Shown here: one piece after another, positions 31,372 through 56,188 of the stretch
Layout of the letters: every line of letters begins with the position of its first letter
Numbering within the stretch: the first letter of the stretch is position 1
Origin: Alphaproteobacteria bacterium
GTDB lineage: Bacteria > Pseudomonadota > Alphaproteobacteria > Rhodobacterales > Rhodobacteraceae
Direction of reading: 5' to 3'
Length of the DNA stretch: 58,541 nt
Assembly (NCBI GenBank): GCA_003697125.1
Contig: RFGB01000186.1
Location: forward strand, 1 to 58,541
Program-made: the position numbers and the translations under genes
Notes under the pieces: generated by a model
Databases searched by the model: none
Seen by the model: only the letters and a program-made list of their open reading frames with translations
What the model was told of the DNA's origin: nothing

Positions 31372-31417
31372 TCCGCGTCTCCTCCCTGCGTCTGTCCCGT
31401 CGGCGGACCGGCGGGGT

Positions 31418-32518: not shown

Positions 32519-32579
32519 CGCGGGTTCCCTGTCGCGTGGGGCGGGAAGGGGCGCGCGCGCCCCTTCCCCGTGGTCTGGG

Positions 32580-33803: not shown

Positions 33804-33849
33804 GTCGTGTCTCCCTGATCTGGTTGGTGGTGTCTGTCGTCCCGCCGGC

Positions 33850-34602
33850 CTAGTAGCGGCCGACGACGAGTCCCCCGTCCACGGTGATGGTCTGTCCGGT
33901 GAGGTAGCGCGCCCCGTCCGAGCACAGGAACAGGATCACGTCGGCGATGTCCTCGGGCTCGCCCACCCGGCCCATGGGGATGAAGGCGGCGGCGGCCTCC
34001 AGCCCCTCCGGGCCGAGGCTGTGCTCGCGCGACAGCGCCTGGGCGGTGCGCACATAGCCCGGGGCCACGCCATTGACGCGGATGCCGTCGCGGGCCAGCT
34101 CCACCGCCAGCCCGCGCACCAGTCCGACCACGCCCGACTTGGCGGCCGAATAGTGCACATGCTGGTCCCAGCCGTAATTCGTGCCCATGATCGAGGACAG
34201 GCAGACGATCGCGCCGCCGCCGGCGCGGCGCATCCCCGGCACCGCCGGGCGGATGACGCGGATCATGCCCTTCAGGTCCACCTCGAAGGTGTGGTCCCAC
34301 TTCGCGTCGGTCAGCTGGTCCAGCGGCACGCGATGGGCGATGCCGGCGTTGCAGACCACCGCCCCCAGCGGGCCATGGGCCGCCTCGACCGCCGCGACCA
34401 CGGCCTCGGCCGCGGCGGTGTCGGTGACATCCAGCGCGTGGAACTGAGCACTGCCGCCCGCCCCGGCGATCGCCTCCGCCACCGCCGCGCCCTCATCCTC
34501 CAGCACATCGGTGACGACCACATGCCAGCCCGCGCGGGCGAAGGCGTGGGCCGTGGCCCGGCCGATGCCGATTCCCGCCCCGGTGATCAGGACCGTCTTC
34601 AT
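33850..34602 (-). CDS. SDR-family oxidoreductase
   Basis: MKTVLITGAGIGIGRATA...YSAAKSGVVGL. The ATG at 34602 overlaps the upstream SDR stop (ATGA). The 377-aa track ORF is an artefactual extension. Confidence 0.88.
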   Translation of the reverse strand: MKTVLITGAGIGIGRATAHAFARAGWHVVVTDVLEDEGAAVAEAIAGAGGSAQFHALDVTDTAAAEAVVAAVEAAHGPLGAVVCNAGIAHRVPLDQLTDAKWDHTFEVDLKGMIRVIRPAVPGMRRAGGGAIVCLSSIMGTNYGWDQHVHYSAAKSGVVGLVRGLAVELARDGIRVNGVAPGYVRTAQALSREHSLGPEGLEAAAAFIPMGRVGEPEDIADVILFLCSDGARYLTGQTITVDGGLVVGRY

Positions 34603-35345
34603 AGCATCACGTCCCCCGAATTCGGGCCGAGCGTCTGGCCCACATAGATGCGCGCATCCTCGCTGGCCAGGAAGGCGACGGTGGCCGCCACGTCCTCGGG
34701 CTCGCCGAAACGGCCCAGCGGCAGTTCCGCCGCCTTGGCCGCGCGCCATGCCTCGGACAGGCCCAGCACCAGTTCGGTGTTGATCGGGCCGGGCGCCACC
34801 GCGTTGACACGCACGCCGCGCTTGGACAGTTCGCGCGCCAGCGACTTGGTCAGTCCGATGATGCCCGCCTTCGCCGCGGCATAGTGGGCCAGTTCCACCG
34901 CGCCGATCTGGCCCAGCTGGCTGGCGATGTTGACGATCACCCCGCTGCCGGCCGCCAGCATGGACGGAACCGCGCGGCGGCATCCCAGGAAGCAGCCGCG
35001 CAGATGGACGGCGATCATGCGGTCCCAGTCCGCGGGGGTGATGTCGGTGAATGGCCGCTGCTGCAGGAAGCCCGCATTGTTCACCAGAAGCGTCACCCGG
35101 CCCCAGGCCGCCTCGGCGGCGGCGAACATGGCGTCGATGTCGGCTTCCCGGCTGACATCCCCGGGTGCGGCGATCGCGCTGCCGCCCGCGGCGGCAATCT
35201 CGCCCGCGACCGACTGCGCGGCCTCGGCGCGCAGGTCGTTGACCGCCACCCGCGCCCCCTCGGCGGCAAGGCGCAGGGCGATCGCCCGGCCGATGCCGCC
35301 CCCCGCGCCGGTGACCAGCGCGGCATGGCCCGACAGGCGGCTCAT
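34599..35345 (-). CDS. SDR-family oxidoreductase
   Basis: MSRLSGHAALVTGAGGGIGRAIA...YAAAKAGIIGL. The ATG overlaps the permease stop (ATGA). Confidence 0.88.
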   Translation of the reverse strand: MSRLSGHAALVTGAGGGIGRAIALRLAAEGARVAVNDLRAEAAQSVAGEIAAAGGSAIAAPGDVSREADIDAMFAAAEAAWGRVTLLVNNAGFLQQRPFTDITPADWDRMIAVHLRGCFLGCRRAVPSMLAAGSGVIVNIASQLGQIGAVELAHYAAAKAGIIGLTKSLARELSKRGVRVNAVAPGPINTELVLGLSEAWRAAKAAELPLGRFGEPEDVAATVAFLASEDARIYVGQTLGPNSGDVML

Positions 35346-36199
35346 GCGATCTCCTCCTGGATGCCGGTGGCGCGCATCCTGGCGCGCCGCACCGACAGCG
35401 CCATCAGGATGCCGTAGACCGACAGCAGCGCGAAGCTGAACAGCGTGGTCAGCACGCCGAAGGCGAACAGGTTGGGGTGAATCTCCACCGCGAAGGTGCC
35501 GTAGATGGCGATGGGCATGGTCACGTCCGACCCGGCGGTGAACAGCGTGCGGGGAAATTCGTCATAGCTGAGCGTGAAGGCGAACAGCATTGCCGACAGC
35601 ACGCCCGGGAAGATCATCGGGAAGGTGACCTTGCGAAAGGTGCGCGCCGGCGTGACCCCCAGCATCCAGGACGCCTCCTCGACCGAACGGTCGAAGCGGT
35701 TGAAGATGGCCAGCATCACCAGGAAGGCGAAGGGATAGGTATAGACCACGTGCAGCACGAAGGCCGTGCTCCACCAGTTGCGGTCGATGCCCAGATTGTT
35801 GGCCAGAAGCGCCATGCCCAGGCCCAGCAGCACGCCGGGCACGATCATGCCCAGCACCACCAGATAGAACACCAGGCCCGATCCGCGGAATCGTTCCCGG
35901 AACGCCTGGGCGGTCAGCGTGCCCAGGACGGTGGACACGACCATGGTCGCGAAGGCGAGCGTCAGCGAGCGCACCAGAGCCTCGCCGATCGGCAGCGGCG
36001 CCACGCGCGACGGCGGCGCGAAGCCCAGCACATGCCGATACCAGTAGGTCGACCATTCCAGGATCGGGAATTGAGGCCCGCCCTCGGGTCCCTTCTGGAA
36101 GGACAGGATGCCCATCACCACGAAGGGACCGTAGAGGAAGGCGATGAACAGCGCGGTATAGACCGCCAGCCCGCCGCGCAGGAACTTCAGATGATGCAT
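35342..36199 (-). CDS. ABC transporter permease (PotC-like)
   Basis: 285-aa polytopic membrane protein of the PotC/binding-protein-dependent family. Confidence 0.88.
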   Translation of the reverse strand: MHHLKFLRGGLAVYTALFIAFLYGPFVVMGILSFQKGPEGGPQFPILEWSTYWYRHVLGFAPPSRVAPLPIGEALVRSLTLAFATMVVSTVLGTLTAQAFRERFRGSGLVFYLVVLGMIVPGVLLGLGMALLANNLGIDRNWWSTAFVLHVVYTYPFAFLVMLAIFNRFDRSVEEASWMLGVTPARTFRKVTFPMIFPGVLSAMLFAFTLSYDEFPRTLFTAGSDVTMPIAIYGTFAVEIHPNLFAFGVLTTLFSFALLSVYGILMALSVRRARMRATGIQEEIA

Positions 36200-36209
36200 C
36201 CCCGCCCCC

Positions 36210-37088
36210 TCACAGCTCGCGCCGCAGATTGACCACGCGCAGCAGCAGCGTGACCACCAGCGCGGTGACGATGGTCAGGATCACCCCGGCCACCGCGGCG
36301 AAGGCCCATTTCAGGCTGCCCACCTGGGTGACGATGATGTTGCCCAGAAGGTTCACCTTGCGCCCCGACAGCGCCGATGCGGTGGCGAATTCGCCCAGCA
36401 CCATCACCGAGACGAAGATCGCCCCCACCACCACGCCGGGCAGCGACAGGGGCAGCAGGATCCTGCGGAAGATCGTCCAGGCCGATGCGCCCAGGTCGCG
36501 CGCCGCCTCGATCAGGCTGGGATCGATGCGCGCCAGCATGAAGGCGATCGGCCCGACCATGAACACGACATAGATCTGCACCATGCCGATGATCACCGAC
36601 AGTTCCGAGAACAGGAGCGCCTCGATCGGGGCGTCGATGATCCCCAGCTTCATCAGCACGATGTTGATCGCCCCCTCCTTGCCCAGCATCGGCCGCCAGG
36701 CCAGCACGCGGATCAGGAACGAGGTCCAGAACGGGATCACGCAGGTGACCAGCAGGACGGTCTGCACCGTCTTGTCGCGCACGAACTGGCCGATGAACAG
36801 CGCGGTGGGATAGCCGATCAGCAGGGTGATGACGAGGACGGTGAGCCAGATGCGCAGCGTGCGCAGAAGCGCCTCGACATAGGTGGTGGAGGAGAAGAAC
36901 GCCTCCCAGCTCTTGGTCGTCAGGTCAGGCTTGATCGCGAAGGTGGTCTGCGTCCAGAAGCTGACATAGACCATCATCGCCAGGGGCAGGACGAGGAACA
37001 GCAGCATCCAGATCACGCCCGGCGCCAGCAGCAGCAGCTGGCGCCTGCGGGCGGCTGCGCCCTGGGTCACGCTCGCGGCGGCCATCAC
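36210..37088 (-). CDS. ABC transporter permease (PotB-like)
   Basis: 292-aa membrane protein. The start is GTG 37088 or ATG 37085, either one coupled to the upstream stop. Confidence 0.88.
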   Translation of the reverse strand: MMAAASVTQGAAARRRQLLLLAPGVIWMLLFLVLPLAMMVYVSFWTQTTFAIKPDLTTKSWEAFFSSTTYVEALLRTLRIWLTVLVITLLIGYPTALFIGQFVRDKTVQTVLLVTCVIPFWTSFLIRVLAWRPMLGKEGAINIVLMKLGIIDAPIEALLFSELSVIIGMVQIYVVFMVGPIAFMLARIDPSLIEAARDLGASAWTIFRRILLPLSLPGVVVGAIFVSVMVLGEFATASALSGRKVNLLGNIIVTQVGSLKWAFAAVAGVILTIVTALVVTLLLRVVNLRREL

Positions 37089-38173
37089 GCCCTCCCCCCC
37101 TGCGCGGCGTCGACGCGCCGCCCGTCCTCGCCGAACAGATGCGCCGCGGCCGGATCCCAGTGCAGCACCCGCGCCTCGCCCTGGGCGAAGCGCAGCGGGT
37201 CGGACTGGCTGAGATGCCGCTCCACCTCGATGATCCCGCCATCGCGGCGCTGGAAGAAATACAGCACCCGGCTGCCCAGGAATTCGGCGGTCACGAATCG
37301 GCCCTCGATCGCGGGCCAGCCCTCGGGCGCCTGGTCGCCGATCTCCACCGCGTCGTGGCGCACCGCATAGGCGCGGGCATGCACGCCGGCGGGCAGCGGC
37401 AACCTGTCAGCGCCCGAGACGAAGGCGCCGTCGCGCGTCTCGCCCTCCAGCAGGTTGTAGGCATTGACGAAACGCGCCACCCGTGCGGTGGCCGGGCGGC
37501 CGAACACCTCGTCGGGCGGGGCAACCTGCACCGCCCGGCCGCCATCCAGCACGATCATCCGGTCGCCCATGGCCAGCGCCTCGGCCTCGTTGCCGGTGAC
37601 ATGCAGGAACGTCACCCCCAGCGTCTCGCGGATCCGGCGCAGCTCGACGGTCATCCGCTCGCGCAGATTCGCATCCAGCGCCCCGAGCGGTTCGTCCAGC
37701 AGGCAGATCCTGGGTTCGGTCACCAGCGTGCGCGCCAGCGACACGCGCTGCTTCTGCCCGCCCGAGATCTGCGACACCATGCGCCCGCCAAGGCCCGAAA
37801 GCCCCACCAGATCCAGCATCGCATCCACCCGGCGCCCCAGCTCGGCCGGGTCGGTGACCGGATCGACCAGCCGGTTGGCCAGACCGAAGCCGACATTCTG
37901 CGCGACCGTCATGTGCGGGAACAGCGCATAGTTCTGCTGCACGAAGCCAAGGCCCCGCAGATGCGCCGGCTTGTGGGTGATGTCCTCGCCATTCAGGAGG
38001 ATGCGGCCGCGGTCGGGGCGCTCCAGCCCGGCGATCAGCCGCAGCAGGGTCGACTTTCCCGAACCCGAAGGCCCCAGCAGGGTGAGATACTCGTCGTCCG
38101 CGACCATCAGATCCAGATCGGCGATCGCCGGACGGCCGTCATAGGACTTCGACAGCCCCCCGATCTCCATCAT
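37085..38173 (-). CDS. ABC transporter ATP-binding protein (PotA-type), first NBD of the operon
   Basis: 362 aa with Walker A GPSGSGKST and signature ISGGQKQR. Confidence 0.9.
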   Translation of the reverse strand: MMEIGGLSKSYDGRPAIADLDLMVADDEYLTLLGPSGSGKSTLLRLIAGLERPDRGRILLNGEDITHKPAHLRGLGFVQQNYALFPHMTVAQNVGFGLANRLVDPVTDPAELGRRVDAMLDLVGLSGLGGRMVSQISGGQKQRVSLARTLVTEPRICLLDEPLGALDANLRERMTVELRRIRETLGVTFLHVTGNEAEALAMGDRMIVLDGGRAVQVAPPDEVFGRPATARVARFVNAYNLLEGETRDGAFVSGADRLPLPAGVHARAYAVRHDAVEIGDQAPEGWPAIEGRFVTAEFLGSRVLYFFQRRDGGIIEVERHLSQSDPLRFAQGEARVLHWDPAAAHLFGEDGRRVDAAQGGRA

Positions 38174-38397: not shown

Positions 38398-39408
38398 ATG
38401 ATTCCCAGCGCGCCCCCGCCCGGAGAGCGTCCCGCGCCGCGCTACTCGGCGATCGAGCGGGCGCTTGCCGATGCGATCGGCGCGGCCCGGCTGCCCCCCG
38501 GCACGGTGCTGACCGAGGAGCCCCTGGCGCGGCTCTTCGGTACCAGCCGCACCCCGGTGCGCACCGCGCTGGCCGAGCTGGAGGCGCGCGGGCTGCTCGG
38601 GCGGTTCGAGGGGCGCGGCTATGTGGTCGCCGGCGGCCCGCCGCGCCGGCTGCGGCTGACGCGCGACCTCCTCGGCCTGCCCGATCCCCCCAGCGCCCCG
38701 CAGCCGGGCAGCGCCGAGCGCATCGCCCGCGACTTCGAGGCGGCGATCGCCAGCGCCCTGCCCTTCGGGCTCTACCGGATCAGCGAACAGGCGGTCGCCG
38801 ACCATTACGGCGTCAGCCGCACCGTGGTGCGCGAGCTGCTCTCGCGCCTGCAGGATCGCGGGCTGGTGCGCAAGGATCTGCGCTCGCACTGGGTGGTGGG
38901 GCCGCTGACCGCCCGCGACGTGGGGCACTACTTCTCGATCCGGCGCCAGCTGGAACCCCTCGCCCTGACCGACAGCGCGCCCCGCATGCCCGCGGCCGAG
39001 ATCCGCGCGATGTGGCAGCGCCTGGAGGCGGCGATGGCCGAGGCGCCCGATGCCCTGCAGGGCCGCCTTGCCGCCGAACGGATCGCCGCGCTGGAGGAGG
39101 ACATCCACATCCGCCTTCTGGCCCGCAGCCCCAATCCGCATCTGCTGCGCATGATCCACCAGAGCCAGATCGCCCTGACCGTCAACAGCGTCTTCGCCAG
39201 CTTCGTCGGCGCCCGGCCGTTCGGGCTGGCGCTGCGCGAACATGCCATCGTGCTGGAATTCGTCATGCGCGGCGCCCATCAGGCGGCGGCGGCGGCGCTG
39301 GAGGAACATCTGCGGCTGTCGGCCGAACGCACCCGCCAGCGGCTGATGGCGATCAGCGTCTTTCCCAGGCCGGAGCTGCCCGCCTATCTGATCCGGCAGA
39401 AGCGCTGA
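38398..39408 (+). CDS. GntR-family regulator with two tandem winged-HTH domains and an FCD effector domain
   Basis: First wHTH: LTEEPLARLFGTSRTPVRTALAELEARGLL. Second wHTH: ISEQAVADHYGVSRTVVRELLSRLQDRGLV. Then an FCD-like helical domain (EDIHIRLLARSPNPHLLRMI). The internal ATG at 38398 was chosen. Confidence 0.82.
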   Translation: MIPSAPPPGERPAPRYSAIERALADAIGAARLPPGTVLTEEPLARLFGTSRTPVRTALAELEARGLLGRFEGRGYVVAGGPPRRLRLTRDLLGLPDPPSAPQPGSAERIARDFEAAIASALPFGLYRISEQAVADHYGVSRTVVRELLSRLQDRGLVRKDLRSHWVVGPLTARDVGHYFSIRRQLEPLALTDSAPRMPAAEIRAMWQRLEAAMAEAPDALQGRLAAERIAALEEDIHIRLLARSPNPHLLRMIHQSQIALTVNSVFASFVGARPFGLALREHAIVLEFVMRGAHQAAAAALEEHLRLSAERTRQRLMAISVFPRPELPAYLIRQKR

Positions 39409-39413: not shown

Positions 39414-40613
39414 TCATCCCCCGATCGCCCAGTCCCAGCCGCGGACCAGGTAGTTGTGTTCGCACATCACCGTGTCCCACACGACCACCCGCGACATGCG
39501 CGCGGAATAGTCGCCCCCCTCGCGGCTGTCGCCGGGGCCGAAGATGACCCGCCCCCAGGGGTCGCGGATGTCGCAGGCGGCGGGCTGCCCGCCATACCAG
39601 AAGTCCCATTCCGCCGCCGTCAGGCAGCGCCGCACCGTCTCGGGATTGGCCATGTAGGCCCCGGCGCGGGCCATGATCGCCCCGGCCCGGCCGTCGAGCC
39701 ACCAGTTCAGATAGTCATAGGCCGCATCCAGCGCCCATCCCGCCAGCGTCACCGACAGGCCCAGCCCGCCGAACCAGCCCCGATAGCCCTCGCGCGGGGT
39801 GGCCATGGCGACTGCAACCCCCTCGGCGCGCAGCCGCGTCACCCCGGACCACCACAGCGAGCCGATCATCGGCCCGCCCCCGCGCAACGCCGCCAGCGCC
39901 TCCTCCTCGTCGGTCCAGAAACAGCGGAAATGGCCCGCCACCCGCAGCGCGTGCAGCCGGTCGACCAGGGCGTCGATCTCCTCCAGCGTCAGGTCGCCCA
40001 GATCGCCGGGATGCATCTGGCCGCGCGCCTGCAGCGCCAGCAGCATGTCCAGCGACCCGATCGCGGCATCGGCCTGCAGAACCACCCGCCCCGCCCAGGC
40101 CGGGTCCAGCAGGTCGCCCCAGCTGGTCACCCCGGCCGGATCCGCCCCGACCACCGCGAAGCCGTCGGCATTGTGCACGGTGGGCAGCATGCTGATGCGG
40201 TCCGATTCGCTGTCGCCCAGGCTGCCATCCAGCTGCACAAACAGCCGGCGCGAGGGATCGCCGCCCCGCGCCCGCGGCCGGTCGGGGGCGATGCGCCCGG
40301 TGCGCGGCAGGGCGTTGATCTCGTCCCAGCGGGTGATGCGCGCCACCTCGATCGGCTGGATCGATCCGGCCGGCCAGATCAGGTCGATGTCGTGGAACCA
40401 CTGGTCGTAGACGTCGAAGCTGTCGGGGGACAGCGCGCCGCGGCGCTGCGCCGCGCTGCCGTCGAGGGTGATGAACTCGAAGTCCAGCCCCAGATCCTCA
40501 GCCGCCGCGCGGGTGACCGGGCGGATCTGGGTGACCGAGGTGCCCAGCACCCTGAGCGGCGCCCGCGGGCGCCGCACCGGGGGCGCGGCCAGCGCTGCGG
40601 CCTGGCCGGCCAT
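39414..40613 (-). CDS. PotD/PotF-type binding-protein paralog lacking an export signal
   Basis: 399 aa, clearly homologous to the 32580-33803 protein (PREGYRGWFGGLGL vs PKEGYRAWSIGISL; FWYGGQP vs FWYEGKP). It starts directly at the mature domain (MAGQAAALAAPPVRRPRAPLRVLGTSV), 5 nt after the pxpC-like stop. Confidence 0.8.
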   Translation of the reverse strand: MAGQAAALAAPPVRRPRAPLRVLGTSVTQIRPVTRAAAEDLGLDFEFITLDGSAAQRRGALSPDSFDVYDQWFHDIDLIWPAGSIQPIEVARITRWDEINALPRTGRIAPDRPRARGGDPSRRLFVQLDGSLGDSESDRISMLPTVHNADGFAVVGADPAGVTSWGDLLDPAWAGRVVLQADAAIGSLDMLLALQARGQMHPGDLGDLTLEEIDALVDRLHALRVAGHFRCFWTDEEEALAALRGGGPMIGSLWWSGVTRLRAEGVAVAMATPREGYRGWFGGLGLSVTLAGWALDAAYDYLNWWLDGRAGAIMARAGAYMANPETVRRCLTAAEWDFWYGGQPAACDIRDPWGRVIFGPGDSREGGDYSARMSRVVVWDTVMCEHNYLVRGWDWAIGG

Positions 40614-40618
40614 CCCTG

Positions 40619-41590
40619 TCAGGCGAGCGCGGCGCGGATGCGCGCCATCAGCGCGGCCCGTTCCCGGCGGGCGGCCAGCGCCTCCTCCATCCCCACCTGG
40701 CGGAACCGCACCGGCATGTGCGGCTGCAGCTGGCCGATCAGGTCCATGTCGGCCGAGATCACCGTGCCGATCATGAAATACCCCCCGCCCGAGACAGCGT
40801 CGCGGTGCAGCACGATGGGCTCGGTGCCGCCGGGCACCTGGATCGAGCCGTAGGGATAGCAGGCATCGGTGATGTTGGAGGGGTCCGAGCCCGCCCCGAA
40901 GGGCTGCCGGCGCGGCACGAATTCCAGCGGCCGGCCCCCGCGGAAGCGGTAGCCCATGCGGTCCGCCTCAAGCGCCACCTTCCATTCGTCCTCGAAGAAG
41001 GCGCGCTGCGAATCCCCGGTGATGCGGTGCCAGTAGAGCCCCGGCAGCACGCGCAGCTCGCAGGGGCTGGCGGGCAGCCGCCTGAGCGCCTCGGGCACGG
41101 TCAGGCCCGGGCGCGCGGCATTGCCCGGCCCCAGCGGCAGCCGGTCGCCCGCCGCGATGGCCCGCCCCTGGACGCCGCCCAGCGCGCCGATGGCATAGGT
41201 GGAGCGCGAGCCCAGATGCGGCGGCGTGGCGATGCCGCCCGACACCGCGACATAGGCCCGTGCGCCGGCCCTGAGATAGCCGAAGCCGAGGCGCTGTCCC
41301 GCCCGGACCGGGATCGCCGACCAGCCGGGCTGTTCCTCGCCGTCGAGGAGGACCGGCAGGTCCGCCCCGGTCACCGCCACGGTGGCATCGGTGGTGAATT
41401 CCAGCTCGGGGCCCATGAACACCGCCTCCAGCCCCGCGGCATCCTCGGGATTGCCGACCAGCAGATTGGCCGCGCGCAGCGCCAGCCGGTCCATCGCGCC
41501 GCCCATGGGTATGCCCAGATGGAAGTATCCCGGGCGCCCCAGGTCCTGGATGGTGGTCAGAAGTCCGGGCTTGATGACGTCAATTGCCAT
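40619..41590 (-). CDS. PxpC/KipA-family protein (biotin-dependent carboxyltransferase family; allophanate hydrolase subunit 2 domain)
   Basis: MAIDVIKPGLLTTIQDLGRPGYFHLGIPMGGAMDRLALRAANLLVGN is the AHS2/CT_A_B N-terminal signature; 323 aa. Confidence 0.88.
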   Translation of the reverse strand: MAIDVIKPGLLTTIQDLGRPGYFHLGIPMGGAMDRLALRAANLLVGNPEDAAGLEAVFMGPELEFTTDATVAVTGADLPVLLDGEEQPGWSAIPVRAGQRLGFGYLRAGARAYVAVSGGIATPPHLGSRSTYAIGALGGVQGRAIAAGDRLPLGPGNAARPGLTVPEALRRLPASPCELRVLPGLYWHRITGDSQRAFFEDEWKVALEADRMGYRFRGGRPLEFVPRRQPFGAGSDPSNITDACYPYGSIQVPGGTEPIVLHRDAVSGGGYFMIGTVISADMDLIGQLQPHMPVRFRQVGMEEALAARRERAALMARIRAALA

Positions 41591-42452
41591 TCAGGGCCTC
41601 CATCAGCCGCGCGTTGGTCCCGTCGATGTCCGCACTCCATTGGGCAAGATCGAAATCGACCTTCGCCATCCGCGGCGCCCAGCGCCCGGCCTCGATCTCG
41701 GCGGCGATGTGGTCGTGCTCCTCGCGGCCGATCGGCCGCCACCGGACGATGTCGCCGGGATTGAACAGCACCATGAAGTCGCGCAGATAGCTCACCGTCT
41801 GGGTCGGATCGTAGATCGGCATCGGCGTGATGCCGAACATCTGGTATCCGCCCGCCCCGCGCACGGAATAGATGCAGCCGAAGCAGCCGCCATGGCCCAC
41901 GGTCTGCTTTGGCGTATCGGTGCGCGGGCGCAGGTATTTCGGCACCTCGAGCTGACGTTCGCGTTCGACCAGCTGATAGAGGAAGGGCAGCCCGGCGACG
42001 AATCCGACCATCGAGACGAACCAGGGCGCGGAATGATGCCTTTCGATGAAGGCATCGGCGTCCGGCAGGCCGTTCACGCGGGCGGCATAGTCGAGATCGG
42101 TGCCCGAGGGGTCCTGATGGCGTTCGCGGAAGCGCATCAGCGTCTCGTGCGTCCAGGGGTCGCGGTAGAAGACCGGCACCTCGATGATGCGGGTGGTCAG
42201 CCGCTGGGGCGCGCTCTCGGCGGCGCTTTCCAGCGCCTTCAGCTCGGCCAGCATCGCGTCGGGGGCGATGACGTCGGGATCGAAGCGCACCTGGAACGAG
42301 GCATTGGCGGGGCAGATCTCGGTGACGCCGCGGATCTGCGCCTCGCGCACCGCCTTGGTGATCGACAGGCTCTTGAAGAAGGCGTCGAGCGACATCTCCT
42401 CGTCGATCTCGACGAAGATGTGCTCGTCGCCGCCGAAGGAATATCGGGTCAT
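41580..42452 (-). CDS. PxpB/KipI-family protein (allophanate hydrolase subunit 1 domain), long form
   Basis: 290 aa with AHS1/CT_C_D-like sequence (EICPANASFQVRFD...MVGFVAGLPFLY...GGYQMFGITP). The ATG follows GGGAGG, and its end overlaps the next gene by 11 nt. Confidence 0.82.
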   Translation of the reverse strand: MTRYSFGGDEHIFVEIDEEMSLDAFFKSLSITKAVREAQIRGVTEICPANASFQVRFDPDVIAPDAMLAELKALESAAESAPQRLTTRIIEVPVFYRDPWTHETLMRFRERHQDPSGTDLDYAARVNGLPDADAFIERHHSAPWFVSMVGFVAGLPFLYQLVERERQLEVPKYLRPRTDTPKQTVGHGGCFGCIYSVRGAGGYQMFGITPMPIYDPTQTVSYLRDFMVLFNPGDIVRWRPIGREEHDHIAAEIEAGRWAPRMAKVDFDLAQWSADIDGTNARLMEALNGN

Positions 42453-42469
42453 GAAGGCGGCCTCCCTGG

Positions 42470-43831
<1,362 letters not shown>

Positions 43832-43842
43832 CGCCGCGCCCC

Positions 43843-44079
43843 TCAATCCATTTCCGCCAGGACCGCGCCGGCCATCACCGGCTCCTCGTTCTCGACGCGG
43901 AAGCGCAGGTTGCTGCCGGCCTCCTCGGCCTTGACCTCGTGGAAGGTCTTCATCACCTCGACCAGCCCGATCACCTGGCCCGCCGCGACGCTGCCGCCAT
44001 CCTCGACGAAGGGCGGCTGGTCGGGGGCGGGGCGGCGGTAGAAGGTGCCGGGCAGGGGCGAGCGGATTTCCTTTGCCAT
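43843..44079 (-). CDS. Short biotin carboxyl carrier protein (biotinyl domain only, 78 aa)
   Basis: MAKEIRSPLPGTFYRRP...GQVIGLVEVMKTFHEVKA contains the biotinyl-lysine motif (E-V-M-K). It lacks the N-terminal half and linker of housekeeping AccB. Confidence 0.88.
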   Translation of the reverse strand: MAKEIRSPLPGTFYRRPAPDQPPFVEDGGSVAAGQVIGLVEVMKTFHEVKAEEAGSNLRFRVENEEPVMAGAVLAEMD

Positions 44080-44109
44080 GGGCGGGTTCCCTTTCGGCTG
44101 TGCTGAGGT

Positions 44110-44889
44110 TCAGTCGATCTCGAGATCCATCGGCGCGGCGATGGTGATGCCGGCCTCCAGCAGCGCCTCGCGCACCGCGCGCCCGATCGCCAGCGCGCCG
44201 GGCGTGTCGGAATGGAAGCAGATCGATTCGAAGGCGATGTCGATGTCGTCGCCCTCGACGGTGCGCACCTTGCCCTCGCGACAGGCGCGCACGCATTTCG
44301 CCGCCACCTCGGCGGGGTCGAGCGGGCGCATCCGCCGCGCGAAGACGATCGAGCCCGAGCGGTCGTAGTCGCGGTCGGCATAGAATTCGCGGATCACCGG
44401 CTGGCCCATCTCGGCGGCGATGCGGGCGGTCTCGGAGATGTGCATGCAGTAGACAAAGAGCTCCGGCCCGGTGCGCTGCAGCGCCTCGATCATGAGCGCC
44501 GACAGCTCGGCATCGCGGGCGGCGGTCATGTACAGCGCGCCATGCGGCTTGACATGCTGCAACGCCACCCCGTGGCGGCGGCCGAACTCGCGCAGCGCGC
44601 CCAGCTGATACAGGATGTCGTTGACCAGCTCCTCGGGCCGGGCGGCAATCGTGCGCCGGCCGAAGCCGCGCAGGTCCTGATAGCCGGGATGCGCGCCCAG
44701 ACCCACGCCATGTTCCGCGGCCAGCCGCACCACGCGATCCATGATCGAGGGATCGCCCGCATGGAAGCCGGTGGCGACATTGGCCGAGGAGACGATCGGC
44801 ATCAGCGCCTCGTCGGGCGCCTCGCCCAGGGTCCAGTGGCCGAAGCCCTCGCCCATGTCGCAGTTCAGATCGACCGATGCCCGGTACAT
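44110..44889 (-). CDS. LamB/YcsF (PxpA) family protein
   Basis: [19 protein letters not shown]...[14 protein letters not shown]...LGAHPGY...[11 protein letters not shown] is the LamB_YcsF signature. The ATG follows GGGGAGGAAG. Confidence 0.9.
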
Positions 44890-44965
44890 CGCTTCCTCCC
44901 CTGTCGGCACGGGATGCTGCATCGCTTCAGCGCCCCGCAGAAGTTCTTTTTTCGCTGGCCGCGAT

Positions 44966-44980
44966 ATCGGTTTTTCTGAT
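44966..44980. promoter_or_regulatory. Candidate LysR-type T-N11-A site (ATC-N9-GAT dyad)
   Basis: ATCGGTTTTTCTGAT in the 104-nt divergent spacer, 77-91 nt upstream of the pxpA-like ATG and just upstream of the lysR ATG. Confidence 0.35.
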
Positions 44981-44993: not shown

Positions 44994-45908
44994 ATGAGCT
45001 TCAACCTGCGGCATCTGAAGTATTTCATCGCCACCGCCGAGCTGGGCCAGGTCAGCCGCGCGGCGGTGGAGCTGTCGGTCAGCCAGTCGGCGGTGACCAC
45101 GGCGATCCGCGAGATCGAGGCCCGGCTGGGCGCCCGGCTGTTCGACCGTTCGGCCCATGGCATGGTGCCGACCGAGACCGGCCGGCGCTTCCTGTCCGCG
45201 GCGCGCGACATCCTGCACAAGGTGGACGAGGCGCTGCAGCTGGCCGCCGCGCCCGAGGTCGAGGGCAGCCTGACGGTGGGGGCCACCTACACGGTGATCG
45301 GCTATTTCCTGCCCCATCACCTGGAGCGTCTGGCCAGCGCCCTGCCCGGCCTGTCGCTGCGCCTGCACGAGATGACGCGCGAGATGATCGAGGAGGCGCT
45401 GATCGCCGGGCGGATCGACATCGCGGTGGCGCTGACCTCGAACATCACCGATCCCGAGCTGGAGACCGAGACGCTGATCCGCTCGACCCGGCGGCTGTGG
45501 ACCGCCTCGCGCCATCCGCTGGCGCGGCCGGGGGTCGGGCTGGCCGAGGTGGCGCGCGAGCCCTATGTGATGCTGACGGTGGACGAGGCCGCCCACACCG
45601 CCATGCGCTACTGGTCGGCCACGCCCTGGCGGCCGCGGGTGGTGCTGCGCACCTCCTCGGTCGAGGCGGTGCGCAGCCTGGTCGCCGGCGGGCAGGGGGT
45701 GTCGATCCTGTCGGACATGGTCTACCGGCCCTGGTCGCTGGAGGGGCGGCGGCTCGAGGCGGTCGATCTGGCCGATCCGATCCCGCCGATGGATGTCGGG
45801 CTGGTCTGGCGACGGGGCATCGAGTTCTCGCCCCAGATGGCCGCCTTCCGCGATCACTTCCGCGCCCGCTTCCACGGCCCGCAGCTTCCCGGCGGCCGCG
45901 CCGGCTGA
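44994..45908 (+). CDS. LysR-family transcriptional regulator
   Basis: [52 protein letters not shown] is a LysR HTH followed by a substrate-binding domain. It is divergent from the carboxylase operon. Confidence 0.9.
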
Positions 45909-45921: not shown

Positions 45922-47412
45922 TCAGGGGTCAAGCCAGCTGTCCGCATCCGACAGCGGCACCTGGAAGCGGCTGGCGGGCCGGGTGCGCGCGCCCCACGCG
46001 CGCAGCACCGCCTTCTCGGCCGCGCGGGCATCGACCTCGCGCCGGATCACGGCGGGATCCCACCCCGCCAGCACCCGCGCGGACAGGGCCGCGCGCAGCC
46101 CCGCATGGGGCGGGCTGTCCCACAGGTCGCGGGTCTCGTCGGGATCGGCGGCCAGATCGAACAGCATCGGGCGATGCCCCTCGACATGGACATATTTCCA
46201 CCGCCCCGCGCGGATCATGCGCTGGGTGGTGGGCTCGCGCCCGGTCCAGACCGAGGCGGTGTCGGTGACGTATTCGCAGAAGGTCTCGTCCAGCCAGGGC
46301 GCGGCGGGATCGCGGGCGATGCCCAGCAGGCTGCGCCCGTGCGAGCGCGGCAGGGGCGGCGCGCCGGCGGCATCGATCAGCGTCGCGCCGACATCGATCA
46401 GGTTGACCACCCTGTCGCAGCGCGCCCCTTCCGGCAGCCGCCCCGGCCAAGCGAGGATCAGCGGGATGCCGGCCGATTCCTCGAACATGGTGTTCTTCCA
46501 CCACAGCCCGCGTTCGCCGGCATGTTCCCCGTGATCCGAGGCATAGACGATCAGGGTGTTGTCGCAAAGCCCGGCGTCGCGCAGCGCGGCCAGCACCTGG
46601 CCGATGCGCCGGTCCAGCGCATGGACAAGCCCCCAATAGGCGGTGCGGGCGCGCAGCACCGCCTGGGGATCGCCCTCGGTGCAGCCCTCGGCCCGCCAGC
46701 GGGCGACCCAGGGATGTTCCCGCGCGGGCGGGGCCAGCCGCGGCGGCCCGATGCGCCCGGCAAAGCGGTCGTAATCCGCCGGGCGGGCGACGAAGGGGCA
46801 ATGCGGCAGGATGAAGCCCACCTGCATCATGAAGGGCGTGTCGTCGCCCGCCGCGCGCGCCCGGCCCAGCTCGGCCAGCCGTGCACAGGCCAGCCGCGCG
46901 GTCAGCTCGTCCACCACCTCATAGCCCGACTGCCCCCGCCCCGACAGGGCGAGCGCGCGCGCCAGCCCGCCGGGGCCGGGGCCGCTCGGCCCCTGGGCCC
47001 CGGCCAGCGGCCCCAGCCGCTGGCGCTCCACCCCCAGCCAGTTCGGCGCGCAGTCGCCGGACAGCCGCTCGGCGAAGCCGTGCAGCTGGTCGGGACCGAT
47101 CAGATGCATCCGCCCCACGCAGATCGTGCGCCAGCCCGCCGCGCCCAGCGCATGGGGATAGCCCGGCAGGTCGGGGGCCAGCGCGTCTTCCAGCGTCCAG
47201 CAGGCCTGCTCGTGGGGCCAGCGCCCGGTCAGCAGCGACATGCGCGATGGCGTGCAGATCGGCGCGGGGCAGCAGGCATTGGTGAAGGTGACCCCGCGCG
47301 CGGCCAGCGCGTCGAGATGGGGCGTCGCCCCGTGCGGGTCGCCATAGGCGCCGCAGACCCGGCGGGCGTGCTGGTCCGAGAACAGGAACAGCATGTCGGG
47401 CGGGCGGGGCAT
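45922..47412 (-). CDS. Sulfatase (Cys-type formylglycine family), no signal peptide
   Basis: MPRPPDMLFLFSDQHAR...CTPSRMSLLTGRWPHE carries the CxPxR-xxxLTGR sulfatase signature; 496 aa. Confidence 0.88.
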   Translation of the reverse strand: MPRPPDMLFLFSDQHARRVCGAYGDPHGATPHLDALAARGVTFTNACCPAPICTPSRMSLLTGRWPHEQACWTLEDALAPDLPGYPHALGAAGWRTICVGRMHLIGPDQLHGFAERLSGDCAPNWLGVERQRLGPLAGAQGPSGPGPGGLARALALSGRGQSGYEVVDELTARLACARLAELGRARAAGDDTPFMMQVGFILPHCPFVARPADYDRFAGRIGPPRLAPPAREHPWVARWRAEGCTEGDPQAVLRARTAYWGLVHALDRRIGQVLAALRDAGLCDNTLIVYASDHGEHAGERGLWWKNTMFEESAGIPLILAWPGRLPEGARCDRVVNLIDVGATLIDAAGAPPLPRSHGRSLLGIARDPAAPWLDETFCEYVTDTASVWTGREPTTQRMIRAGRWKYVHVEGHRPMLFDLAADPDETRDLWDSPPHAGLRAALSARVLAGWDPAVIRREVDARAAEKAVLRAWGARTRPASRFQVPLSDADSWLDP

Positions 47413-47415
47413 CGT

Positions 47416-48588
47416 TCAGTCCAGCGGCGGGGTGCGATAGAGCGTCCGGCCCCCGATGCGGATCTCGACCTGCTGGAGATAGGGGGCGAGCGCGGCGGTG
47501 TTCACCTCGACCCCCAGACCCGGCGCGTCGGGGGCGCGGATCGCGCCATCCGCGATGGGCAGCGGCGCGACCGGCACCGCCCGGGCCAGGGCGCTGGGCC
47601 GGGCGGGGTATTCGCAGATGTCATGGCGCGACAGTCCGGCATAGGGCTGCAGCGAGGCCGACAGGGCCAGATGGGTGGTGAAGCAGTGATTGACATAGAC
47701 CGCCCCGCGGGCATCGGCGTGGCGGGCCGCGGCATGGGCCGGGCCGATGCCGCCGATGCGGCCGGTGTCGATCTGCAGGAAGCGCACCCGGCCGTAATCG
47801 ACGACATGGCGCGCCATGGCGAGGTTGTGCGCCGCCTCGCCCCCGGCCAGACCCACCGGGCTCTGCGCGGCCAGCGCGGCATAGGCCTCGTAGGCATGGG
47901 CGGCGAAGGGCTCCTCCAGCCACAGCGCGCCGGCGGCCCGAAGCGCGGGCAGGCGCGCCGCCGCGGCGGCGACATCCTCGCCGAAGACCTGGCCCGCATC
48001 GACCATCAGCAGCCCGTCGCCGCCGATCCCCTCGCGCGCGGCGGCGAACTGGTCGGCATCCGCCCGGGCGCTGCCGGTGCCGATCGGCCCCCAGCCCAGC
48101 TTGACCGCCGTGAAGCCTTGCGCCCTGGCCTCGCGGCAGCGCGCGCGGGTCTCTTCGGGCGTGTCGCCGAACAAGAGCGAGGCATAGGGCCGCTTCGGCG
48201 CGCTGTGGCGATGGCCCAGCAGCCGCCAGACCGGCTCGCCATGGCGGCGGCCCAGCAGGTCCCACAACGCGGTCTCGAGCCCCGACAGGGTATGGGGCGC
48301 CTGCAGCAGGTCCATGCTGTTGCGCGCCACCCTGACCGCGATGGCGGCGATGTCGGCGGGCGAGTCGAGCCGCGCCCCCAGCACCGAGGCCGCGACCGGC
48401 TGGCAGGCGCCATGGGACATCGGACAGACGAAGGCGGCGATGGAGGGCAGCGGCGCGGCCTCGCATTCGCCCCAGCCGACATGGCCCCCCGCCGCGACCC
48501 GGACCAGAAGCGCATCCTGGCTGCCATCCGCGGCCGCCGTCACCTCGGGCATCGCGAGATAGAAGAAGTCGACCGCCTCGATCCTCAT
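47416..48588 (-). CDS. Enolase-superfamily enzyme (mandelate racemase / muconate lactonizing family, MR-like subgroup)
   Basis: 390 aa. Metal-ligand region MVDAG / LEEP / GGE, strand-6 motif LQIDTGRIGG and a following His (VNHCF), as in acid-sugar-dehydratase-type members. Confidence 0.85.
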   Translation of the reverse strand: MRIEAVDFFYLAMPEVTAAADGSQDALLVRVAAGGHVGWGECEAAPLPSIAAFVCPMSHGACQPVAASVLGARLDSPADIAAIAVRVARNSMDLLQAPHTLSGLETALWDLLGRRHGEPVWRLLGHRHSAPKRPYASLLFGDTPEETRARCREARAQGFTAVKLGWGPIGTGSARADADQFAAAREGIGGDGLLMVDAGQVFGEDVAAAAARLPALRAAGALWLEEPFAAHAYEAYAALAAQSPVGLAGGEAAHNLAMARHVVDYGRVRFLQIDTGRIGGIGPAHAAARHADARGAVYVNHCFTTHLALSASLQPYAGLSRHDICEYPARPSALARAVPVAPLPIADGAIRAPDAPGLGVEVNTAALAPYLQQVEIRIGGRTLYRTPPLD

Positions 48589-50078
48589 GCCGCCCCGCGA
48601 CGGTAGAGCGTGGCGCGCGGGGTGAAGGTGGCGTCGGGGTCGAGCGGGAACATCGGCCGCGCGCAGATCCGGTGGCCGAGCCGGGCGATGTCGGCCGAGG
48701 TCGCCCCCGGCGCGTCGATGTTGAAGTTGCGCCGGACCCAGGCGTCATACATGTGGCGTTCCACATGGGGCGACTTGACGACGATCAGGTCGAAGTCGCG
48801 CGGGTTGCAGCCATTGGCGAAGTAGAGCGCGCGATCGAACAGGCTGACGCTGCGCGAGAGCACCACGACGGTCATGCGCTTCCAGCGCAGCACCGCGCAG
48901 GGTCCGGCATCGATCGGGGTGCCCATGGTCTCCAGCCGCGCCCGGCCGTCGGAGATGAGCGCCACCTCGGCCTCGACCGGCATCGGCGTGAAGCGCCCGG
49001 GGTCGATCGCCCCGCCCAGCGTCACCCGGATCCGCGCCCCCACCCCGGCGGCGTGGGCCGCCGCCGCCGCGGCGGGATCGACGATCTGGGCCAGCACCCG
49101 GCCGGGATAGCCGGCCGCGTCCAGCGCCCGCAGGATGGCGTTCGAATCGCCGGTGGCGCCCGAGGACGTGGCGTCGGCGGCGTCGGTGAACACCACCGGG
49201 CCATCCAGCACCCGGGCCTGGGCGATGGCGCGCGGCAGCGGCACCAGCCGCGCCTGCATCCGGTGGCGCAGCGCCCAGAACTCGCCGGCAAGGCGCAGCG
49301 CCTCGTCGCGGGCGACCGCCCCGTCGCCGGCGGTGGTCACCAGGACCTGGCTGCACAGTTCGGGCACGTCGGTGAAGGGATTGCCGATCATCACCGCCGC
49401 GGCCAGCGCGCGGCCCTCGGCCTGCAACCGCCGGCATTCCAGGATCAGGTCGCCATAGCAGCCGGTGGCGGTGATCAGCTCGTCCCCGCGCACCAGCGCC
49501 GGGATCACCACACGCGCGGTGCAGGGGGGCGGTCCGCCCTGCATCAGCCCGATCAGCAGCCGCGCCGCCCTGGCGCCGGTATCGGCGAAATCGACATGGG
49601 GATAGGTGTGATAGACCGCCAGCGCGTCGATCTGGCGCAGCATGCGGTCGGTGCAGATCCCGTGCAGGTCGAGGGAGATGACCAGCGGCCGTTCCGGCCC
49701 CAGCATGCGGCGGATCTCGGCCAGGAGATGGCCCTCGGGGTCGAGTTCGCCCACCGCCGCCATCGCGCCGTGCAGCGAGGCATAGACCGCGTCGGCCTCG
49801 CCGATCCGGGCGGCCACCGCGTCTAGGATCTCGGCCGACAGGCGCCGCCAGCCATCGGCCGACAGGATGCCCGCGCTGCCCGCCCGCGCGGCGATGGCGG
49901 GGATCACCTCGATCCCGGCCGCCTCGAACACCGCCAGCGCTCCGCCGATCTCGGTGTTCAGGCCGCGATGGTCCAGCATCGCCGCGCCATGGGCGATGTC
50001 GAAATTGGCGTATTCCGACGGCAGCGGGTTGAAGGAGGAGACCTCCTGCTTGCAGTCCAGCATCAGGATCCGGGCCAT
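48585..50078 (-). CDS. M81-family metallopeptidase (MlrC-like)
   Basis: MARILMLDCKQEVSSFNPLPSEYANFDI... is the MlrC N-terminal domain signature; 497 aa. Its stop overlaps the downstream ATG (ATGA). Confidence 0.85.
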   Translation of the reverse strand: MARILMLDCKQEVSSFNPLPSEYANFDIAHGAAMLDHRGLNTEIGGALAVFEAAGIEVIPAIAARAGSAGILSADGWRRLSAEILDAVAARIGEADAVYASLHGAMAAVGELDPEGHLLAEIRRMLGPERPLVISLDLHGICTDRMLRQIDALAVYHTYPHVDFADTGARAARLLIGLMQGGPPPCTARVVIPALVRGDELITATGCYGDLILECRRLQAEGRALAAAVMIGNPFTDVPELCSQVLVTTAGDGAVARDEALRLAGEFWALRHRMQARLVPLPRAIAQARVLDGPVVFTDAADATSSGATGDSNAILRALDAAGYPGRVLAQIVDPAAAAAAHAAGVGARIRVTLGGAIDPGRFTPMPVEAEVALISDGRARLETMGTPIDAGPCAVLRWKRMTVVVLSRSVSLFDRALYFANGCNPRDFDLIVVKSPHVERHMYDAWVRRNFNIDAPGATSADIARLGHRICARPMFPLDPDATFTPRATLYRRGAA

Positions 50079-50087
50079 GGCGCGCCC

Positions 50088-51107: not shown

Positions 51108-51177
51108 GATGCGCTCCACTCTTGCGTGGATCGTATGATTGTATACTATTCCATGCAGTGTCAAGCGGAGGCTCCGG

Positions 51178-54116: not shown

Positions 54117-54153
54117 CATCCCCATGGCCAAGCTGCCGTGGGGATGTTTTATT
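54117..54153 (+). terminator. Rho-independent terminator
   Basis: Stem CATCCCCA (54117-24) / TGGGGATG (54139-46) with an inner GGC/GCC extension, followed by TTTTATT. It lies 68 nt after the CTERM-protein stop. Confidence 0.7.
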
Positions 54154-54193
54154 GTGCCCGCGGGCAGGCAAGGGATTCGGGAATACCGGACGC

Positions 54194-56187: not shown

Positions 56188-56188
<1 letters not shown>

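Follow-up and report, generated by a model that had tools for sequence, protein, structure and literature searches.

A split urea-carboxylase-like operon with a PxpA-type hydrolase subunit in an alphaproteobacterium: a candidate biotin-dependent lactam-opening enzyme

This analysis concerns an operon on the minus strand of contig RFGB01000186.1, from an alphaproteobacterium of the family Rhodobacteraceae (GenBank assembly GCA_003697125.1); "the window" denotes the whole stretch that was analyzed, 58,541 nt. Between positions 39414 and 44889, six open reading frames (ORFs) lie head to tail. The first five encode a LamB/PxpA-type hydrolase subunit, one biotin carboxyl carrier protein (BCCP), one biotin carboxylase (BC), and two carboxyltransferase (CT) subunits. 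We consider it moderately probable that the operon encodes a multi-subunit biotin-dependent enzyme that is driven by ATP and bicarbonate and opens a cyclic amide (lactam), as the split counterpart of a urea-carboxylase-like protein paired with a LamB hydrolase. The genes, domains, catalytic motifs, synteny, and gene fusions behind this proposal are direct observations. Listed in the order of transcription, the operon consists of:

44894-44900, minus strand: Shine-Dalgarno sequence GGGAGGA, 5 nt before the pxpA-like ATG at 44889, read from the sequence
44110-44889, minus strand: LamB/YcsF (PxpA-type) hydrolase subunit, 259 amino acids (aa) (PF03746, 301 bits)
43843-44079, minus strand: BCCP, 78 aa, with the motif EVMK (PF00364)
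42470-43831, minus strand: BC, ATP-grasp, 453 aa (Pfam; NF009471, PRK12833)
41580-42452, minus strand: CT subdomains C/D ("long PxpB"), 290 aa (PF02682)
40619-41590, minus strand: CT subdomains A/B (PxpC-like), 323 aa (PF02626, 294 bits)
39414-40613, minus strand: binding-protein-like sixth gene, 399 aa (29% identity to the binding protein at 32580-33803)

From 5' to 3', the genes are spaced by gaps of 30, 11, and 17 nt, an 11-nt overlap between the PxpB-like and PxpC-like genes, and a gap of 5 nt. A first-pass annotation, made from the sequence alone, had described six head-to-tail genes with this spacing behind a ribosome binding site and a divergent LysR gene; the coordinates, gaps, and overlap were all reproduced, as were GGGAGGA at 44894-44900 and a lysR gene from ~44994. 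No terminator-like sites were found between the operon genes on the minus strand, and we therefore rejected an operon split by internal terminators. Domains were assigned with Pfam and NCBIfam models, and equivalog outcomes are given as the score relative to the model cut-off. Pfam identified LamB_YcsF, Biotin_lipoyl, Biotin_carb_N/CPSase_L_D2/Biotin_carb_C, CT_C_D, and CT_A_B with E-values from 1e-13 to 1e-90. With BC, BCCP, CT_C_D, CT_A_B, and LamB all confirmed by Pfam and NCBIfam, the operon does supply every module of urea carboxylase (UC) as separate polypeptides together with a LamB-family subunit, as had been claimed.

We sampled relatives by scanning one genome per species, which yielded 573 confirmed relatives of the C/D subunit (CT_C_D). 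The best 80 of these, all from alphaproteobacteria and with 72-82% identity, are referred to as the 80 loci; distant relatives are those with 35-50% identity. Fragments were frequent among the representatives returned, and only full-length matches were kept. Antisense ORFs of this 70% G+C DNA (the G+C content of the window is ~70%) entered the greedy ORF clustering of the loci as contaminants, and the clustering was relied on solely for families confirmed by hidden Markov models (HMMs). The order PxpA-BCCP-BC-CT_C_D-CT_A_B was constant across the 80 loci wherever the contig allows; the arrangement of this five-gene core is thus far beyond chance. The sixth gene adjoins the core in only 26 of the 80, so that conservation extends to the first five of the six genes described earlier, but not to the last.

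Among distant relatives the set persists while its order varies. The order is CT_C_D-CT_A_B-LamB-BCCP-BC in an uncultured lineage and BCCP-BC-LamB-CT_A_B-CT_C_D in Nocardia; a Burkholderia plasmid retains the set in shuffled order, and a Thermoplasmatota archaeon and a haloarchaeal plasmid carry the full set dispersed. A reduced BCCP-CT_C_D-CT_A_B variant was also seen, and one relative adjoins the biotin transporter gene BioY. In one protein of 826 aa (P0193), a full-length BC is fused to CT_C_D, which argues that the parts make one enzyme; two others (P0244 and P0159) show the same pairing with partial domains and may be fragments. Adjacency of the genes, one of the points on which the earlier proposal was open to refutation, is therefore conserved across phyla and reinforced by BC-CT_C_D fusions.

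On a metagenomic contig (L092, positions 7237-11828), the genes run LamB, a BC-CT_C_D fusion of 826 aa, CT_A_B, and BCCP. A Peripla_BP_4/BPD_transp_2 ABC transporter lies in front of this cluster and a DMF_alpha (dimethylformamidase alpha) gene flanks it; the fusion variant could be a handy single-construct target for biochemistry. In rhizobia, Azospirillum, Sulfitobacter, and haloarchaea the operon is often on a plasmid or chromid (91 plasmid records). The tRNA-Pro(TGG) gene at 9331-9407, the tRNA-Cys(GCA) gene at 56882-56955, and the gene for a GyrB/ParE-type topoisomerase subunit at 54152-56188 suggest that the window is chromosomal. Its source is an uncultured organism, and metagenomic contigs were the only place where identical proteins turned up.

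The BCCP passes NF005457 (PRK07051, an 80-residue model) with 123 bits against a cut-off of 87, and it falls below the BCCP equivalog TIGR00531 (67.5 vs 115.2 bits). It aligns only with the C-terminal domain of the 156-aa E. coli AccB and is without the N-terminal ~75 residues, yet its candidate biotinyl-lysine, K44 in EVMK, is invariant (75/75 homologs). Its length of 78 aa, the retained motif, and the two model outcomes bear out the view that it is not the housekeeping AccB. The BC likewise passes NF009471 (PRK12833; 717.5 bits, cut-off 686) and falls below the accC equivalog TIGR00514 (581.4 vs 626.5 bits). It has 50.8% identity to E. coli AccC and retains all 12 AccC catalytic residues checked (K116, K159, E201, H209, K238, E276, E288, N290, R292, Q294, E296, and R338); at the other AccC position mapped, H236, it has arginine. 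By these scores, BC and BCCP are paralogs of the housekeeping AccC and AccB, and the intact BC residues and a predicted biotinylatable lysine in an (A/V)MK motif would class the product as a biotin-dependent carboxylase. Within the window, we found no second copy of BC or BCCP. A housekeeping acetyl-CoA carboxylase (ACC) was rejected as the identity of this pair: both proteins score below the equivalog cut-offs, the BCCP is truncated, and an AccA/AccD partner is absent from the operon.

The C/D subunit scored 120 bits against the UC model TIGR02712 (urea_carbox; model positions 806-1081) vs 69.8 bits against the PxpB model TIGR00370 (cut-off 145.55). Its best match in the PDB is Kluyveromyces lactis UC (3VA7, residues 840-1114), which spans subunit residues 4-274, whereas true PxpB/KipI structures match only residues 115-245; the C-terminal segment and a mid-protein insertion are therefore UC features. 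The extra C-terminal segment that had been noticed in this long (290 aa) PxpB-like protein thus falls inside the UC alignment. K1605 of KlUA is the probable general base of UC carboxyltransfer (PMC5770610). Its equivalent in the C/D subunit is K172 (in EVPKYLRPRT), which is invariant in 80/80 homologs and in all long-PxpB distant relatives examined; the position is arginine in E. coli PxpB and in M. smegmatis MSMEG_0436.

The A/B subunit passes TIGR00724 (274 bits, cut-off 230), and its score against the PxpC equivalog NF045499 (216.3 bits) is far below the cut-off of 500. It carries a 10-residue UC-type insertion, DPSNITDACY (PSN..D..Y), which is common to K. lactis UC and all BCCP-linked relatives and missing from E. 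coli PxpC. Within it, P237, S238, N239, D242, and Y245 are invariant in all 76 homologs compared (76/76), and D242 and Y245 are the equivalents of KlUA D1321 and Y1324. The separate genes do not reach the TIGR02712 equivalog cut-off of 1303.85, scoring 519 (BC), 235 (A/B), 120 (C/D), and 17.8 (BCCP) bits. As far as sequence can indicate, these results support CT subunits that are UC-like rather than canonical PxpBC. Canonical PxpABC was rejected as an assignment: the PxpB and PxpC equivalog models failed, and the UC-type lysine and insertions are present.

The PxpA-like protein passes the PxpA subfamily model NF003814 (301.9 bits, cut-off 226), falls below the PxpA equivalog models, and has 39% identity to E. 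coli PxpA; its relatives in the PDB are PH0986, TTHB195, PA4511, and YbgL. We propose this LamB/PxpA-type subunit as the ring-opening hydrolase. The enzyme would then be a hybrid, in which UC-type transferase chemistry is joined to a PxpA-type hydrolase. Among related loci, two PxpA lineages (63-78% vs 40-48% identity to the PxpA of the window) partner the same 60-80%-identical BC/CT_C_D/CT_A_B set, which suggests that the hydrolase subunit has been swapped; such a swap perhaps changes specificity. One locus (L023) has an additional, separate PxpA copy.

From these features we infer the following chemistry and substrate class. With ATP and bicarbonate, BC would carboxylate the biotin of the 78-aa carrier protein, and the PxpB-like (C/D) and PxpC-like (A/B) transferase would move the carboxyl group onto the ring N-H of a lactam, with K172 as the base. 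The LamB/PxpA-type hydrolase would cut the activated, imide-like ring amide, and the resulting N-carboxy-amino acid (a carbamate) would lose CO2 spontaneously. The net reaction would be lactam + ATP + H2O -> omega-amino acid + ADP + Pi, with bicarbonate recycled, and the ATP spent would pay for a hydrolysis that is uphill at neutral pH. Caprolactam hydrolysis is endergonic at neutral pH, with a computed value of +23 kJ/mol, and carboxylation has been suggested as the route taken by caprolactamase (PMC8453981); it is because lactam hydrolysis is uphill at neutral pH that known lactamases of the caprolactamase kind consume ATP. The substrate class is most likely a small N-unsubstituted lactam, and our best guess for the leading candidate is 2-pyrrolidinone, which would give 4-aminobutyrate (GABA). 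The proposed mechanism needs an N-H lactam, and this may be the reason that the same islands also contain hydantoinase-type enzymes, which phosphorylate. Precedents for it, given below with the related systems, are of a genetic or structural nature.

A bolder claim, which we regard as a little more doubtful than probable, is that the operon represents a new reaction class of biotin enzymes, a "lactam amidolyase." Here carboxylation of the lactam nitrogen would drive hydrolysis, the UC-type transferase and LamB would form one machine, and the signal-less binding-protein paralog encoded by the sixth gene would be a cytoplasmic substrate-capture or specificity subunit. By extension, lactam N-carboxylation could explain the action of fungal LamA/LamB, and some stand-alone PxpBC homologues possibly couple to ATP through a borrowed housekeeping biotin carrier.

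The operon sits in a conserved island of ~20 kb, and the clues to its substrate come from neighbors that recur across lineages. Two modules of the island lie on the same strand as the operon:

31418-38173, minus strand: uptake/oxidation module with an ABC ATPase, two permeases, two short-chain dehydrogenases/reductases (SDRs), a Tat-exported PotD-type binding protein (32580-33803), and a second ATPase (Pfam)
25527-31401, minus strand: cyclic-amide module with hydantoinase/oxoprolinase A and B, an isochorismatase-family amidohydrolase, and an Old Yellow Enzyme (OYE) reductase (Pfam, NCBIfam)

Orthologs of the uptake/oxidation module (60-86% identity) accompany the core in 21-26 loci, once inverted (L059). 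Orthologs of the cyclic-amide module (58-82% identity) occur upstream of the core in L008, L017, L020-22, L026-27, L031, L043, L049, L054, and L078. This recurrence in other genomes indicates that the hydantoinase locus is truly linked to the operon, and the relevance that the first-pass annotation gave to its proximity is upheld by these loci, in which its genes accompany the core in other arrangements. The hydantoinase pair of the window scored below the NCBIfam cut-offs for caprolactamase and was rejected as such.

Two contexts are dominant among the 80 loci. Type I consists of LysR, the core, and a TorT-like binding protein with a CUT2-type ABC transporter; type II, to which the window belongs, adds the signal-less paralog, a GntR/FCD regulator, a PotD-type ABC importer with a Tat-exported binding protein, and two SDRs. 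A gene that passes the GabT equivalog (4-aminobutyrate aminotransferase; 810 bits, cut-off 724) and an aldehyde dehydrogenase gene follow the core and transporter in L012, L033, L040, L052, L053, and L070. Class-III aminotransferases adjoin the core in the archaeal cluster, in L097, and on a Paenarthrobacter plasmid, where an aldehyde dehydrogenase and a glutamine-synthetase-like gene are also found. Immediately upstream of pxpA, 15-25 loci have a caprolactamase-like pair whose CapB passes its model (1095 bits, cut-off 1000), which places two unrelated ATP-dependent lactam-opening systems in one apparent operon. NCS1 "allantoin permease"-type transporters adjoin the core in Burkholderia and L097. 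Based on these gene contents, the recurrent neighbors probably point to a small polar cyclic amide that is converted to an omega-amino acid. The operon had been described as having no assignable substrate; this holds for experimentally defined substrates in the literature, but the neighbors narrow the choice to an N-H lactam that gives an omega-amino acid. The comparative data shrink the candidates to 2-pyrrolidinone first, and then valerolactam, 5-oxoproline, succinimide, and hydantoins.

Some details of these neighbors are recorded here as side observations. Examples of the CapB/CapA pair are L003 (positions 3559-7465), L007, L022, L026, L027, L031, and L054; a divergent gene (family 18) often lies beside the pair and is AraC-type as judged by eye only, with no HMM check. 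The binding protein of the CUT2 transporter passes the NCBI model for TorT, the periplasmic protein of the TMAO reductase system (417 bits, cut-off 200), in L006, L012, L029, L033, L040, L052, L053, L064, L071, and the Nocardia locus L096. The name TorT is probably an over-annotation, because the protein belongs to an importer beside a lactam-type enzyme, and the ligand is probably some small polar molecule.

Several points weigh against a lactam-opening biotin enzyme. We know of no assayed enzyme of this architecture, nor of any direct precedent for a biotin enzyme that N-carboxylates a lactam. With 182 bits against E. coli PxpC and 147 bits against UC, the A/B subunit is a little closer to the former, KlUA N1330 is glutamine here, and the UC "GD" motif is missing. 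GabT adjacency occurs in only ~7 of the 80 close loci, and we found no aminotransferase gene next to the operon of the window, where the neighbors (SDRs, OYE, isochorismatase-like amidase, and polyamine-type binding proteins) spell no 2-pyrrolidinone pathway. The butyrolactam enzyme of Pseudomonas putida is a three-subunit PxpABC paralog in whose description biotin is unmentioned (bioRxiv 10.1101/2021.12.09.472016), which means that lactam opening does not require BC and BCCP.

The same protein families fit other activities, of which a 5-oxoprolinase with a dedicated BC/BCCP pair, supplying the ATP-coupling step and yielding glutamate, is the strongest competitor, though we judge it unlikely. 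The PxpA protein passes its subfamily model, the best solved relative of the A/B subunit is E. coli PxpC, RefSeq uses 5-oxoprolinase names in R. johnstonii, Burkholderia, and haloarchaea, and the pxpB-pxpC-accB-accC-pxpA operon of Staphylococcus aureus may be the main pxp operon of that species (PMC11315280); 5-oxoproline is itself an N-H lactam to which the same chemistry is applicable. However, the PxpB and PxpC equivalogs are missed widely (69.8 vs 145.55 and 216 vs 500 bits), and a route to glutamate has no need of the GabT and class-III aminotransferases, aldehyde dehydrogenases, and caprolactamase-like neighbors. P. putida has distinct PxpABC paralogs for 5-oxoproline and butyrolactam (bioRxiv 10.1101/2021.12.09.472016), and one locus (L023) has the second, separate PxpA copy noted above. 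Slightly less likely still is an N-carboxylase of the ureide or urea type, for which urea, guanidine, hydantoin, N-methylhydantoin, an imide, or some related compound would be the substrate and LamB would take the role of allophanate hydrolase. It would accord with the UC-specific lysine, insertion, and C-terminal extension of the CT subunits, with the hydantoinase A/B genes and the isochorismatase-family amidase (the fold of N-carbamoylsarcosine amidase and biuret hydrolase) that accompany the core, and with the NCS1 transporters that adjoin it in two lineages. Against it, no amidase-signature allophanate hydrolase or DUF1989 domain was found in the window genes scanned (14784-57801 plus the operon) or in the surveyed loci, and no carbamoylase gene was found in or beside the operon. 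An Rfam scan of the whole window identified two tRNAs only, and no guanidine (ykkC-type) or other riboswitch; the CgdAB-type partners expected of a guanidine carboxylase are likewise missing. The UC equivalog cut-off is far above the scores of the proteins, which also deviate from UC at some active-site positions, and the aminotransferase/GabT links suit an amino-acid product better. A true urea or guanidine carboxylase was rejected on the missing allophanate hydrolase, DUF1989 gene, and riboswitch.

We consider it very improbable that the PxpB/PxpC-like pair is non-catalytic and regulates or sequesters the biotin carrier, or that BC and BCCP are spare ACC parts that are adjacent by chance. 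A regulatory role does have a parallel in MSMEG_0435-0436, which bind biotinyl-BCCP and lower propionyl-CoA carboxylase activity, with undetectable urea carboxylase activity (PMC13012033), and RefSeq calls BC and BCCP "acetyl-CoA carboxylase." The catalytic lysine that is lost in MSMEG_0436 (arginine) is, however, invariant here; BC and BCCP fail the housekeeping equivalogs, no AccA/AccD-type or other CT partner lies in the operon, and P. aeruginosa has separate accB and accC genes besides PA0493/PA0494 (PMC6249292). The BC-CT_C_D fusions and the strict co-inheritance with LamB likewise argue for one enzyme. The lactam-opening enzyme thus remains the reading that we prefer.

Regulatory genes flank the operon on both sides:

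44994-45908, plus strand: LysR-type regulator (HTH_1 and LysR_substrate; Pfam), divergent from pxpA
44966-44980, no strand assigned: candidate LysR operator ATCAGAAAAACCGAT (ATC-N9-GAT / T-N11-A box), in the lysR-pxpA intergenic region close to the lysR start
38398-39408, plus strand: GntR/FCD regulator, 336 aa (Pfam), convergent with the operon and divergent from the transporter genes

The lysR start at 44994 was picked by the position of the HTH domain within the ORF, and the lysR-pxpA intergenic region measures 104 nt. A lysR homolog is divergent from pxpA in 46 of the 80 loci. An ATC-N9-GAT box with an A/T-rich center was found in 30 of 39 related lysR-pxpA intergenic regions, compared with a chance expectation of ~0.01 per region as estimated from base composition. 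The LysR regulator is likely the activator of the operon, and it would act through the ATC-N9-GAT operator. The GntR/FCD gene is co-conserved in 25 of the 80 loci, and it is also present in R. johnstonii pRL12 and in Nocardia. In its product, the FCD domain is preceded by two winged-helix matches, at residues 71-132 and ~182-215 of the long ORF.

The sixth protein matches SBP_bac_6 weakly (19.7 bits, below the cut-off), and its relatives in the PDB are PotD and PotF. From its first residues on, it aligns to the mature part of the Tat-exported PotD/PotF-type protein at 32580-33803 (29% identity, E = 6e-35). We found no signal peptide in it or in any ortholog, whereas every ortholog of the periplasmic paralog has a twin-arginine signal peptide. 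A periplasmic binding protein was rejected because the family, unlike its Tat-exported paralog, is without signal peptides. In L008 and L015 the sixth gene is instead placed after the caprolactamase-like pair, and the R. johnstonii locus is without it. Because of this distribution and its presence beside the core in only the minority of loci counted above, it is an accessory of the island and lies outside the core. We infer that the cytoplasmic ligand of the signal-less paralog is probably the substrate or something related to it, and we would guess at a ligand binder, sensor, or specificity factor there. We know of no established role for a cytoplasmic binding-protein paralog beside an enzyme.

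Farther from the operon, genes for protocatechuate 3,4-dioxygenase beta- and alpha-like proteins (24034-25469, plus strand) abut the OYE end of the island, followed by an Opp-type ABC transporter (18946-23985) and TRAP transporter genes (14784-18019). Beyond LysR, 45922-51230 (minus strand) encodes a sulfatase, a mandelate racemase/muconate-lactonizing-enzyme-family protein, an M81/MlrC-like metallopeptidase, and an AstE/AspA-family deacylase; this cluster is not conserved with the operon in related loci.

If the proposal is correct, lactams join the short list of substrate classes of biotin-dependent carboxylases, and a mechanism becomes available for a widespread operon whose current labels, "acetyl-CoA carboxylase" plus "5-oxoprolinase/allophanate hydrolase," would be wrong. 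Among the organisms that have it are P. aeruginosa, S. aureus, rhizobia, marine Rhodobacterales, and haloarchaea. Annotations of the genes in R. johnstonii 3841 pRL12, Burkholderia, Azospirillum, and others read 5-oxoprolinase subunit PxpA, acetyl-CoA carboxylase, allophanate hydrolase subunit 1, and biotin-dependent carboxyltransferase family protein. The proposal would also explain decades-old fungal lamA/lamB genetics, and it would provide enzymes and LysR/GntR sensors for lactam and nylon-monomer biotechnology.

Among characterized systems, urea carboxylase/urea amidolyase (K. lactis KlUC, PDB 3VA7 and 5I8I; Oleomonas sagaranensis UC) has the same modules, namely BC, CT (A/B plus C/D), and BCCP. 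The C/D subunit aligns with it over the whole length, including the C-terminal extension and the mid-protein insertion, and K1605, D1321, and Y1324 are kept; the logic of amide-nitrogen carboxylation followed by hydrolysis would be shared. UC is, however, one chain of ~1200 aa, whereas the operon supplies these modules as four separate polypeptides. The partner of UC is an amidase-signature allophanate hydrolase rather than LamB/PxpA, and UC acts on urea, whereas the genomic context of the operon points to lactams and omega-amino acids. PxpABC (E. coli YbgJ/K/L; Bacillus subtilis KipI/KipA/YcsF) consists of the same LamB_YcsF, CT_C_D, and CT_A_B families with overlapping B and C genes, and its ATP-dependent opening of the lactam 5-oxoproline is the precedent reaction. 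The canonical enzyme is not known to need biotin. Canonical PxpB has ~220-240 aa, is without the insertion and C-terminal extension, and has arginine where UC and the operon family have lysine; canonical PxpC is without the 10-aa PSN..D..Y insertion, and canonical pxp operons contain no dedicated BC or BCCP.

Aspergillus nidulans LamA (UniProt P38095) is a single fused urea-carboxylase-like polypeptide. With lamA and lamB, a LamB-family protein and a urea-carboxylase-like partner serve growth on 2-pyrrolidinone-type lactams. The modules of such a pair, a LamB homolog and UC-like BC, CT, and BCCP, are all present in the operon as separate subunits. The fungal lactam genes are co-regulated with GABA catabolism (PMC8016842), and ~7 related bacterial loci have GabT beside the core; the fungal system differs in that it is defined by genetics and has a fused LamA where the operon is split, and the window locus is without an aminotransferase neighbor. 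In P. putida, growth on butyrolactam depends on the PxpABC paralog PP_2920-2 (bioRxiv 10.1101/2021.12.09.472016). Like CapAB/OplBA, which act on caprolactam and valerolactam, it performs ATP-dependent opening of simple lactams to omega-amino acids, and a specific regulator is encoded next to each. The published account of PP_2920-2 is of a PxpABC-like enzyme without biotin components, unlike the operon, and CapAB/OplBA belong to the hydantoinase/oxoprolinase (actin-fold ATPase) family, which is unrelated to the operon enzyme, although CapAB-like genes lie upstream of the core in many related loci.

The PxpBC homologues of M. smegmatis, MSMEG_0435-0436 (Rv0263c/Rv0264c), are a stand-alone PxpC/PxpB-type heterodimer that docks biotinyl-BCCP, held at the equivalent of the UC CT active site in a 2026 cryo-EM structure (PMC13012033). 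They act in trans on AccA3 of the long-chain acyl-CoA carboxylase and lower its activity; they are without key UC residues (arginine for lysine), and a dedicated BC/BCCP or LamB is absent from the described complex. Uncharacterized operons of this architecture, each with the same five families, are PA0492-PA0496 of P. aeruginosa, pxpB-pxpC-accB-accC-pxpA of S. aureus, and RL_RS33685-33705 on pRL12 of R. johnstonii (formerly R. leguminosarum) 3841. The R. johnstonii locus also shares LysR, GntR, and the PotD-type ABC/SDR module, to which the window adds the signal-less paralog. PA0493-0496 have been called "precise function unknown" (PMC6249292), the S. aureus operon was named by annotation only (PMC11315280), and a 2011 biotin carboxylase survey flagged two UC-transferase-like genes as unstudied (PMC3199775). 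Full-text literature searches found no experimentally defined substrate for the BC/BCCP-linked operon form, in agreement with the first-pass annotation. Because these reports already show the operon type with its substrate unassigned, the window locus is an ordinary member of a widespread, visible, and unsolved operon family. Relative to the characterized systems, it is a variant of the urea-amidolyase/PxpABC kind.

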